Positions 4,802-6,017 of a stretch of 64,000 nucleotides of DNA are shown here, one piece after another. The notes beneath the pieces were generated by a model that searched no databases, was not told where the DNA came from, and saw only the letters and a program-made list of their open reading frames with translations. Each line of letters opens with the position of its first letter. Position 1 is the first letter of the stretch. A program made the translations under genes and the position numbers. The DNA comes from Myxococcales bacterium (GTDB lineage: Bacteria; Myxococcota_A; Polyangia; Haliangiales; Haliangiaceae), in NCBI GenBank assembly GCA_016794525.1, contig JAEUJY010000077.1, forward strand, positions 173,091 to 237,090, read 5' to 3'.

Positions 4802-5779
4802 ATGCACGTGCTCGTGATCGGCGGCAATCGCTTCATGGGGGTGTCGCTGGTGTGGCGGCTCCTGTTCGCGGGGCACCGGGTGACGGTGTGCAACCGCGGC
4901 AACCTCGCCGATCCGTTCGGCGATCGCGTCGAGCGCGTCCGCGCCGATCGCTCGACCGACGGGTTCGACGCGGCGCTGGCCGGGCGCGCGTTCGATCGCG
5001 TGATCGACATGGCCGGGTTCACCGGCGACGACGTGGCCCGCGCGCTGCGGGTGCTGGGCCCGCGGGTCGGCCACTACCTGTTCGTCTCGACCGGCCAGGT
5101 GTACCTGGTGCGCGAGGGCTGCCCGCGGCCGGCGCGCGAGGACGACTACGCCGGGCCGGTGATGGCCGCGCCGCCGAGCGAGGCCGAGCACGCGGACTGG
5201 GCCTACGGCGTCGGCAAGCGCGCCGCCGAGGACGCGCTGGCGGCGGCGGCGGTGCCGTCGACCCGCGTGCGCATCCCGATGGTCAACGGCGAGCGCGACC
5301 CCAAGCGCCGGCTCGAGGGCTACCTGTGGCGCATGCTCGACGGCGGGCCGCTGCTGGTGCCGGGCGCCGACGCGATCGCGCGCCACGTCTACCGCGGCGC
5401 GGTGGTCGACGCGCTGGCGCGCATGGTCGACGCGCCGCCGCCCGCGCCGGTCTACAACCTCGCGCAGGCCGAGCAGCCGACGGTGCGCGAGCTCCTCGAG
5501 CGGCTGGGCGCGCAGGTCGGCGTGCAGCCGCGGATCGTCGACGTGCCCGCGGCCGAGATCGCGGCGGCCGGGCTCAGCGTCCGCGAGGTGTCGCCGCTGT
5601 CGACGACGTGGATGTCGCACGTCGATCCGGCGCGCGCGGTGGCCGAGCTGGGCTTCGCGCACCCGTCGCTCGACGCGTACCTGGGATCGATCGTCGCCGA
5701 GCTGTTGACCGGCTGGCGCGCCGAGCCGCCGGCGGGCTACGGGCGGCGCGCGGGCGAGCTCGCGCTCGCAGGTTGCTGA
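4802..5779 (+). CDS. NAD-dependent epimerase/dehydratase (SDR family).
   Basis: The N-terminus MHVLVIGGNRFMGVSLVWRLL is a Rossmann GxxGxxG motif, and an SDR-like YxxxK region (AYGVGKRAAE) follows. The track ORF starts earlier; the ATG at 4802 is preferred. Confidence 0.8.
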   Translation: MHVLVIGGNRFMGVSLVWRLLFAGHRVTVCNRGNLADPFGDRVERVRADRSTDGFDAALAGRAFDRVIDMAGFTGDDVARALRVLGPRVGHYLFVSTGQVYLVREGCPRPAREDDYAGPVMAAPPSEAEHADWAYGVGKRAAEDALAAAAVPSTRVRIPMVNGERDPKRRLEGYLWRMLDGGPLLVPGADAIARHVYRGAVVDALARMVDAPPPAPVYNLAQAEQPTVRELLERLGAQVGVQPRIVDVPAAEIAAAGLSVREVSPLSTTWMSHVDPARAVAELGFAHPSLDAYLGSIVAELLTGWRAEPPAGYGRRAGELALAGC

Positions 5780-5846
5780 GAACGCCGGAGGCGGTTCGAA
5801 GTCAACCTGCCCCGTGCCCGTGCCCGTGCCCGTGCCCGTGCCCGTG
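5768..5846. repeat. Structured intergenic repeat element, family 1, copy A: hairpin plus a (CCCGTG)6 hexamer tract.
   Basis: An 8-bp stem GCAGGTTG...CAACCTGC encloses a loop ctgagaacgccggaggcggttcgaagt, which contains an inner CGCC-GGA-GGCG hairpin. Six CCCGTG units follow. The element starts at the epimerase stop codon. A second copy lies at 27961-28044 in inverted orientation. Confidence 0.6.
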
Positions 5847-5940
5847 GGGCCTCGCGCTGGCGAGGCGGCGGCATGACCTCGTGGCCCTGGTCCACGAGAT
5901 CGAGGAGGTCGAGGCGCGGTGGTAGCGCCCCCAGAAGATC

Positions 5941-6017
5941 GGGCACGGGCACGGGCACGGGCACGGGCACGGGAGCACGGCGCTGCCAACGCGGCTTTGC
6001 CGCGGGTTGGCAGCGCC
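5941..6017. repeat. Inverted (GGGCAC)5 hexamer tract followed by a strong hairpin, giving a bidirectional terminator-like structure.
   Basis: GATCGGGCACGGG...(GGGCAC)5 is the reverse complement of the tract at 5811-5846, about 95 bp away. It is followed by the hairpin GCGCTGCCAACGCGGC-TTTG-CCGCGGGTTGGCAGCGC, placed directly 3' of the stop codon of the minus-strand gene 6020..6982. Confidence 0.55.

Follow-up and report, generated by a model that had tools for sequence, protein, structure and literature searches.

The stretch of DNA examined here, 64,000 nt of contig JAEUJY010000077.1 from a Myxococcales bacterium (hereafter the window), has a G+C content of 74.6%, and the nearest homologues of its thiolase and epimerase genes carry names such as Polyangiales, Polyangiaceae, Kofleriaceae and 'Deltaproteobacteria' metagenome-assembled genomes. 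At two sites, each between a pair of convergent genes, it contains a short element in which a palindromic hairpin, here named hairpin A, is fused to a tandem tract of the hexamer CCCGTG. The original prediction, made from the letters alone, regarded this element as a structured RNA feature under selection; the comparisons presented here show inserted DNA of a dispersed family, with a compensated hairpin, an unstable microsatellite and a kinship to the ends of cassettes that carry a four-helix-bundle protein gene and sometimes a transposase of the IS5 insertion sequence (IS) family.

The first site, locus 1, lies between a NAD-dependent epimerase gene on the plus strand (4685-5779, TGA stop at 5777-5779) and a DUF2785 gene on the minus strand (6020-7069), with an intergenic block of 240 nt. 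Hairpin A copy 1 (5768-5810, plus strand; GCAGGTTG-N27-CAACCTGC) has an outer stem and a paired interior and is one of a family of at least 13 copies; the last four epimerase codons and the stop codon fall within it, and the C-terminus of the protein reads ...LAGC* in the window versus ...LAG* in relatives. The hairpin is followed by a perfect (CCCGTG)6 tract on the plus strand (5811-5846), whose complementary strand is a canonical G3N3 G-quadruplex (G4) motif, by a 90-nt spacer with two small hairpins (5847-5936) and by a (CCCGTG)5CCCGATC tract on the minus strand (5937-5973), the inverted partner of the first one. The block is closed by hairpin C (5974-6019, minus strand; GCGCTGCCAAC ... GTTGGCAGCGC), whose sequence is unrelated to hairpin A and which begins directly after the TAG stop of the DUF2785 gene. 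Two modules are therefore found face to face at locus 1, hairpin A plus tract on one side and tract plus hairpin C on the other.

Locus 2 contains a single module and a further 36 nt, for an intergenic block of 116 nt between a CarboxypepD_reg-domain gene on the plus strand (26885-27928) and a thiolase (acetyl-CoA acetyltransferase) gene on the minus strand (28045-29349). The 36-nt remainder (27929-27964) holds two short hairpins; it is followed by a perfect (CCCGTG)5CCCGATC tract (27965-28001, minus strand) and by hairpin A copy 2 (28002-28045, minus strand; GCAGGTCG-N28-CGACCTGC), which begins with the last base of the thiolase TAG stop. All four flanking open reading frames (ORFs) are real genes with Pfam domains, in a tail-to-tail arrangement. 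The convergent setting that had been proposed is correct, with the qualification that the epimerase stop is inside hairpin A and the thiolase stop shares a base with it. The boundaries 5768-5846 proposed for the first copy hold, while the second copy ends at 28045 and not at 28044.

Comparison of the two copies of hairpin A confirms that the paired substitutions in the 8-bp stem are real, since T>C and A>G changes are found on its two sides. The loop had been described as a shared stretch of 27 nt; the two loops are indeed identical save for one extra A (N27 versus N28), but they are not open, and folding extends the pairing so that each copy becomes an almost uninterrupted hairpin of about 20 bp, tipped by GGA. 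The fusion of each copy to a tract of five or six hexamers is also borne out, all three tracts being 100% perfect repeats according to Tandem Repeats Finder; the adjoining GATC is present in two of the three, i.e., in both (CCCGTG)5CCCGATC tracts and not in (CCCGTG)6. A chance origin is excluded, as an 18-mer of the tract has 12 matches in the window versus 0.11 expected, and a 21-mer of the loop has two versus 0.00. The folding energy of locus 1 is -204 kcal/mol on the plus strand (z = -11.6) and -200 kcal/mol on the minus strand (z = -12.9); here the second, inverted tract and the additional hairpin described originally were found again, and the two tracts fold as a perfect stem of about 36 bp, close to the 35 bp that had been claimed.

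A comparison of orthologous sites bears on the origin of these blocks. In one relative compared at locus 1 (L182; this and the other L-numbers are labels of compared loci), which has an epimerase 97% identical at the amino acid level and flanks roughly 96-97% identical at the nucleotide level, the epimerase and DUF2785 genes are syntenic and only 1 nt separates their stop codons, versus 240 nt in the window. The same 1-nt junction is found in the syntenic pairs of L181 (95%) and of L178-L180 (92%), and a global alignment displays a single clean gap that spans almost all of the 240-nt block. At the second site, the syntenic thiolase and CarboxypepD_reg genes of L170 (thiolase 92% identical) have abutting TGA and TCA triplets, with 0 nt versus 116 nt, the 36-nt remainder being absent like the rest of the block. 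A further relative (L167, 98%) does possess hairpin A at locus 2, followed by CCCATG(CCCGTG)6CCCGATT, that is, seven units versus five in the window. Each intergenic block is a clean indel, and the length of the microsatellite changes between near-identical strains. Since three progressively more distant relatives are devoid of the locus 1 block, an insertion in the lineage of the window would be the parsimonious direction of the change. These sites also provide a dated case: relatives with 92-97% identical flanking proteins keep the abutting stops, and therefore the complete block of hairpin and microsatellite arrived in one step.

Other members of the family were sought by scanning metagenome contigs with (CCCGTG)3CCCGATC as the query, and the metagenome counts given here are among the matches listed. 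At least 120 contigs contain this string, almost all with a G+C content of 0.6-0.78, and hairpin A occurs in at least 13 distinct copies, two from the window and 11 from metagenomes. The sequence GCAGG...CCTGC is common to them (one copy has ACCGG...CCGGT instead), as is an inner stem AACGC...GCGTT, and in 13/13 a C-rich hexamer tract, either (CCCGTG)n or a variant of the (CCCCTG)n type, follows directly; no copy of hairpin A lacking a tract was found in 739 kb. The compensation noticed in the two window copies extends to the whole family, with standard pairs in 103/103 cells of the 8-bp outer stem, changes on both sides at four of the eight pairs, one position occurring as UA, GC, AU or CG, and a covariation score that none of 500 shuffles reached; the additional copies thus show none of the uncompensated mismatches that would have counted against the original prediction. 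The tetranucleotide 5' of the hairpin is CTAG in ten of the 13 copies and GTAG in one. Its TAG is a real in-frame stop of a coding-like ORF in only about 5/12 cases, and therefore it belongs to the element or to its target and not simply to the gene.

Hairpins of other, locus-specific sequence are also found beside tracts, and these start exactly at a real in-frame stop codon in eight of ten cases. Composites resembling locus 1, in which a hairpin, a tract, a short spacer, an inverted tract and hairpin A follow each other, are present in L049, L064, L078 and L142. In L076 (6880-6905), L078 (4590-4625) and L108 (minus strand, near 1719-1756 in reverse coordinates) the upstream gene supplies the 5' arm of the hairpin through its final codons and its stop, for instance in GCCGCCGCG-TGA-GCGGCGGC, and the 3' arm gives the impression of resident sequence copied in inverted orientation.

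As far as the tracts themselves are concerned, 118 of 157 in the metagenome sample lie outside coding-like ORFs according to crude gene calls; when both neighbours could be called by a likewise crude rule on G+C at third codon positions (GC3), 27 tracts were between convergent, 15 between divergent and 15 between tandem genes (57 in all). Inverted pairs occur several times in the sample, and all three window tracts are between convergent genes. The CCCGATC end recurs in about one third of the tracts that had not been selected for it. After masking of secondary tracts, the flanks cluster in small families of two to six members only, with no single long consensus element. Random positions in the same G+C-rich contigs fold as well as, or better than, the sequences beside the tracts taken together, and thus hairpins are a feature of a subset of tracts only. 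Pyrimidine-rich simple repeats also adjoin CCCGTG tracts, namely (TCTCG)n in L129, L156 and L160, (CTCCCT)n in L066, L100 and L164, and (CCCGAT)n in L053, L058, L161 and L162, and TC-rich sequence is very often found 3' of CCCGATC.

A second kind of relative is represented by complete gene cassettes. A gene of about 120 aa coding for a protein of the PF05635/TIGR02436 family, four-helix-bundle proteins known as '23S rRNA intervening-sequence' proteins, is present in 11 of the 120 loci selected by their tracts; XCC0516, the protein of Protein Data Bank (PDB) entry 2GSC, is among its homologues. The nine complete cases all have an inverted pair of tracts around the gene. One of the nine lies 5 kb away from the tract by which its locus had been selected, in a contig with a G+C content of 42%; there (L061, 10538-11150) the inverted CCCGTG/CCCATG tracts around the gene are far more G+C-rich than their surroundings, which suggests a horizontal transfer of the cassette together with its arms. 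In L123 and L165 the four-helix-bundle ORF runs on into the GGGCAC tract at its 3' side, so that the predicted protein ends in a (GT)n tail.

In some of these cassettes the ends are made of the same module as in the window. In L153 the four-helix-bundle gene is placed between perfect 80-nt inverted ends, each with CTAG, a hairpin of the hairpin-A family and a tract, and a weak remnant resembling the C-terminus of an IS5 transposase is visible (24-aa match, E = 5e-4). The order in L070 is CTAG, an end of about 90 nt, the four-helix-bundle gene, an intact transposase, the other end and CTAG; the ends again consist of a hairpin-A family member and a tract and are 80-98% complementary, while the transposase is a DDE enzyme of the IS5 family (NF033581, 256 bits), so that a transposase-bearing relative sharing these ends does exist, in another organism. 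L159 and L121 contain different elements of the IS4/5 type, with a frameshifted orfAB and, once more, a four-helix-bundle gene; the tract is part of their long inverted ends, at a distance of about 45 nt from the ...GGGACAGNCC|CTAG terminus. CTAG is a favoured target of the IS5 group, and it is found on both outer flanks in L153, L070 and L064; the corresponding tetranucleotides in the window are CTCG...CTAC at locus 1 and GTAG at locus 2.

Four-helix-bundle genes retrieved by protein similarity alone present a comparable organization outside the CCCGTG family. On cyanobacterial plasmids, six of six such genes have inverted arms of heptamer or decamer tandem repeats, with 17-29 matched bases; the 3' arm of the Nostoc plasmid genes also overlaps the last codons. 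In Picosynechococcus sp. PCC 7003 (plasmid NZ_CP016476.1, 126543-126899; L175) the gene, with inverted (GAGGAGATAA)-type arms, is found between cas10/cmr2 and cmr3 in a type III-B CRISPR operon, and looks like a cassette of the intervening-sequence kind inserted inside the operon. The Xanthomonas protein XCC0516 is itself a four-helix-bundle homologue, as presumably is XAC0531, which we take to be its orthologue from its position beside bccP; the Nostoc gene alr0549 is annotated as coding for a four-helix-bundle protein.

Taken together, these data lead us to favour, on balance, the view that both window loci are recent insertions of a non-autonomous repeat element, of the foldback type or similar to miniature inverted-repeat transposable elements (MITEs), derived from such cassettes, and not a conserved RNA gene. 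The building block would be formed by (C/G)TAG, a palindromic hairpin and a (CCCGTG)n tract, often ending in CCCGATC, and two inverted modules would correspond to the long terminal inverted repeats of the cassettes of related bacteria. A deletion series is plausible, judging from the arrangements compared, starting from a transposase with its passenger gene, passing through the passenger gene only and arriving at the ends only, with locus 1 at the last stage. Mobilisation would occur in trans, most likely by an IS5-family transposase, because of the CTAG flanks, of the transposase inside L070 and of the tract-bearing ends of L159. The element would persist only where its insertion is harmless, namely in the gap of 0-1 nt between tail-to-tail genes; the module also brings stop codons with it, a TAG at its edge and a TGA in its loop, which close two of the three reading frames within 15 nt and may help it to survive. 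Once in place, the hairpin at each gene end may act as a 3' cap or stop of the transcript, and the G-rich strand could, to judge from its motif, form G-quadruplexes.

Several observations weigh against this view. A target-site duplication cannot be read unambiguously at either window locus when empty and filled sites are compared, and the lack of a clean duplication counts in particular against mobilisation of the IS5 type. The terminal inverted repeat of locus 1 (inverted tracts of 36-37 nt) holds at the level of the tracts only, the outermost hairpins A and C being unrelated, and locus 2 has just one module, i.e., a single end. Neither a transposase nor a four-helix-bundle gene was found within the 64-kb window, and no remnant of either was detected in the window spacers; the autonomous-looking relatives come from other organisms, with a lower G+C content (0.64-0.68). 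For most tracts of the metagenomes the flanks are unique and no hairpin adjoins, so that the tract may have an additional way of spreading or arising. Finally, the metagenome scan required the CCCGATC end, which makes the sample a biased one, and the gene context of its loci depends on the crude GC3 rule.

The target sites offer one further observation, made post hoc: the left half of hairpin A (GC.GG..CTGAG.ACGCC) resembles the sequence of the empty site at both loci (window 5762-5790 and 28020-28050 versus L182 2355-2385 and L170 2870-2895; CTGAG-TC-ACGCC / GTGA-TC-ACGGC). This likeness could reflect a target preference or a coincidence of stop-to-stop junctions; as a source of a target duplication or of microhomology between empty and filled sites it was considered and set aside, since it gives no clean model.

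The first of the alternatives is the one closest to the original prediction, namely a functional structured RNA, such as a 3'-untranslated-region element, a terminator lacking a U-tract or assisted by Rho, or a small RNA, kept by selection on its pairing and duplicated in the genome. Seen in the direction of the upstream gene, all three window units are indeed built alike, with the stop codon directly followed by the hairpin and then by (CCCGTG)n, and both the compensated stems of the 13 copies and the position of the locus-specific hairpins at real stops would fit with this explanation. Moreover, the C/G ratio in the 78 nt after the hairpin is 1.76 for unit 2 and 1.62 for unit 3, which corresponds to the 98th-99th percentile of the window (95th percentile, 1.46) and resembles a Rho-loading site; loading of Rho is conceivable there but not at unit 1, whose ratio is just 1.1. 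However, the orthologous sites are empty in relatives with 92-97% identical flanking proteins, the tract varies in length, and the inverted ends of gene cassettes consist of this module too; in the wider sample, tracts have both orientations with respect to their neighbour genes and are also found between divergent ones. The Rfam 15 covariance models gave no match in the window at the gathering score, and at E <= 1 only a chance-level M23 match inside the epimerase gene; a scan for intrinsic terminators returned no terminator-like site at all, the hairpins being present with tails of CCCGUG repeats in place of a U-tract. The inference of selection on RNA structure is thus not sustained, nor is that of a small RNA or of a dedicated bidirectional terminator, and we regard a functional RNA as unlikely; a palindromic DNA element would be equally expected to conserve its pairing if it were recognised or propagated in hairpin form. 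For annotation of high-G+C genomes, this means that mobile repeats should be excluded before compensated hairpins between convergent genes are called RNA genes.

A palindrome-associated element of another kind, either of the repetitive extragenic palindromic (REP)/bacterial interspersed mosaic element (BIME) type or related to IS200/IS605, also appears unlikely. In these systems a Y1 (HUH) transposase recognises a hairpin with its 5' tetranucleotide and inserts without target duplication, and several features of the window would agree with them: the size of the palindromic units, 43-48 nt, and the conserved (C/G)TAG immediately 5' of the hairpin, where Escherichia coli REPs carry GTAG; no visible target-site duplication; differing hairpins at the ends of the composites, recalling left-end and right-end hairpins; and a preference for convergent intergenic regions, where REP and BIME units, too, occur as imperfect palindromes with compensated stems, often in inverted pairs. 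Y1_Tnp genes are indeed found in two of the compared loci, one beside the thiolase gene of L171 (3630-4322, 87% relative) and one in L120 (11932-12600), which ends 14 nt from a nine-unit tract. However, L120 is the only such case in the 120 tract-selected loci, L171 was retrieved through its thiolase, is devoid of tracts and has no hairpin A in the flanks of the Y1_Tnp gene either, and no Y1 transposase gene is present in the window or beside any copy of hairpin A. The transposase inside the cassette ended by hairpin A is instead the DDE enzyme of the IS5 family, and no association with a REP-associated tyrosine transposase (RAYT) was found here. The microsatellite tail is without known counterpart in REPs, and we know of no REP element with hexamer microsatellites as a feature.

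It is very improbable that the tracts are simply a host microsatellite class like those of Xanthomonas and Nostoc, i.e., G4/i-motif repeats that arise and grow by slippage where they stand and serve a regulatory or structural role of some kind, beside hairpins that are ordinary terminators and with no mobile element involved, because, although the G3N3 unit in at least four copies, the intergenic position, the common inverted convergent pairs and the variation in length between relatives match the published repeats (PMC4692102), the tract flanks are mostly unique and the window tracts supply three of the six canonical G4 motifs of the window, the empty sites hold 0-1 nt and so leave no possibility of expansion in place, hairpins, spacer and both tracts came together, hairpin A recurs as one element at loci that are unrelated to each other, each time joined to a tract, the recurrent CCCGATC end argues for copying, and the 80-nt inverted ends of L153 are perfect.

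Having thus preferred insertion of a cassette-derived repeat element, it is useful to place it among the systems already described. Rehm et al. 2015 (PMC4692102) reported G4-forming repeats of GGGAATC in Xanthomonas and of GGGGA(C/T)T in Nostoc, which are intergenic, near gene ends, rare between divergent genes, variable in length between relatives and of no known function, with about 70 convergent inverted pairs per genome; in the tables of that paper a G4 repeat lies over the start of XCC0516 and of XAC0531, and a 129-nt array is located 55 nt upstream of alr0549. The window tracts share with them the tandem G3-4N3-4 organization, usually of at least four units, here perfect (GGGCAC)5-6, the location near gene ends, the frequent convergent inverted pairs able to form stem-loops and the differences in length between close relatives. 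They differ in the unit, the hexamer GGGCAC, in the fusion of the tract to a conserved palindromic hairpin and in the host, a Myxococcota/Polyangia-like bacterium of 75% G+C; G4 is known here as a sequence motif, and a clean presence or absence of the whole block is demonstrated.

The intervening sequences (IVS) of 23S rRNA in Coxiella and Leptospira are selfish stem-loops of sporadic occurrence, associated with a PF05635/S23p ORF (PMC4990558). Their terminal inverted repeats pair over a considerable length, 28 bp in Coxiella, as the two tracts do over about 36 bp at locus 1, and the four-helix-bundle ORF is optional; in the cassettes related to the window elements the same gene is carried between inverted arms. 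Conversely, the window elements lie between protein-coding genes and not in a 23S rRNA helix (no rRNA is present in the window), their arms are microsatellites and they have no ORF. As the Coxiella IVS, with its S23p ORF and 28-bp terminal stem, is cut by RNase III, the duplex of locus 1 in a read-through RNA would, by analogy, be a substrate of the same enzyme. With MITEs and deletion derivatives of IS5-family elements, the family has in common short, non-coding copies, inverted ends (at locus 1 at the level of the tracts), a polymorphism for presence or absence at orthologous sites, CTAG at the outer flanks in L153, L070 and L064, and ends shared by the transposase-bearing L070; the differences are that the ends, of 80-100 nt, are internally palindromic and contain a microsatellite, that no clear target duplication is seen at either window locus, that locus 1 is bounded by two unlike hairpins, and that relatives have a passenger four-helix-bundle gene. 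The element would be a variant of G4-type intergenic microsatellites, IVS-like stem-loop elements and IS-derived miniature elements, caught soon after its insertion.

What most deserves further attention is the association of PF05635 genes with microsatellite arms that are specific to a lineage. We put forward, as a tentative proposal and with less than even confidence, that a single cross-phylum class of IVS-like mobile cassettes may unite PF05635 (Avd-like) genes with lineage-specific G-rich microsatellites, the gene lying inside and the inverted microsatellite arms outside; such cassettes, together with derivatives lacking the gene, would have seeded the intergenic repeats of Xanthomonas (GGGAATC), of heterocystous cyanobacteria (heptamer arrays) and of Myxococcota-like bacteria (CCCGTG), the window loci being two seeds soon after insertion. 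The evidence cited for it consists of the nine of nine metagenomic genes in inverted tracts, the six of six cyanobacterial plasmid genes and the repeats at XCC0516, XAC0531 and alr0549. G-rich intergenic microsatellites and rRNA IVS with a four-helix-bundle ORF have each been unexplained for decades; if the proposal is true, cross-phylum cassettes and their gene-less derivatives would explain abundant intergenic repeats of several phyla. The link with four-helix-bundle and IS5 cassettes offers an origin for repeats of this sort that can be tested and, for the PF05635 family, a nucleic acid that is a candidate partner. In the literature searched, no description of a link between four-helix-bundle genes and flanking microsatellites was found, and no relevant paper contains the tract string.

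Searches in other databases help to delimit the distribution of the element. A scan of genome contigs with a 19-mer of the loop gave only five chance matches in unrelated phyla, indicating that the host species is not represented among the scanned genomes or that its representative is without the element, and a search of plasmid DNA with locus 1 gave no match. (CCCGTG)4 was matched in 40 viral contigs, mostly in imperfect repeat contexts of the PV or GT type and never with the hairpin or the CCCGATC end, and therefore the bare tract is not diagnostic; no four-helix-bundle relatives were confirmed in viral contigs. No sigma-70-like promoter was found at the window elements. A tRNA or an attachment site, hinted at by a T-arm-like GGTTCGAA in the loop of hairpin A, was also discarded, as ARAGORN finds no tRNA and no T-arm is formed.

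Some minor features of the window may be added. The true start of the epimerase gene is probably downstream of 4685, since relatives call a protein of 324 aa. Strong gene-end hairpins without hexamer tracts are found at 48040-48130 (minus strand) and at 41570-41690 (plus strand), for example GAGAGGGTCTTTCGAAAAGACCCTC followed by CCCCCACAAGACGTGGGG, and thus ordinary 3' hairpins exist in this host too. Finally, about ten tandem copies of a 15-nt unit (GTCGATGGCGCGGTG), with higher-order periods of 30 and 45 nt, are present at 32306-32470 inside the ORF 32147-33643 and probably encode a repetitive protein segment.

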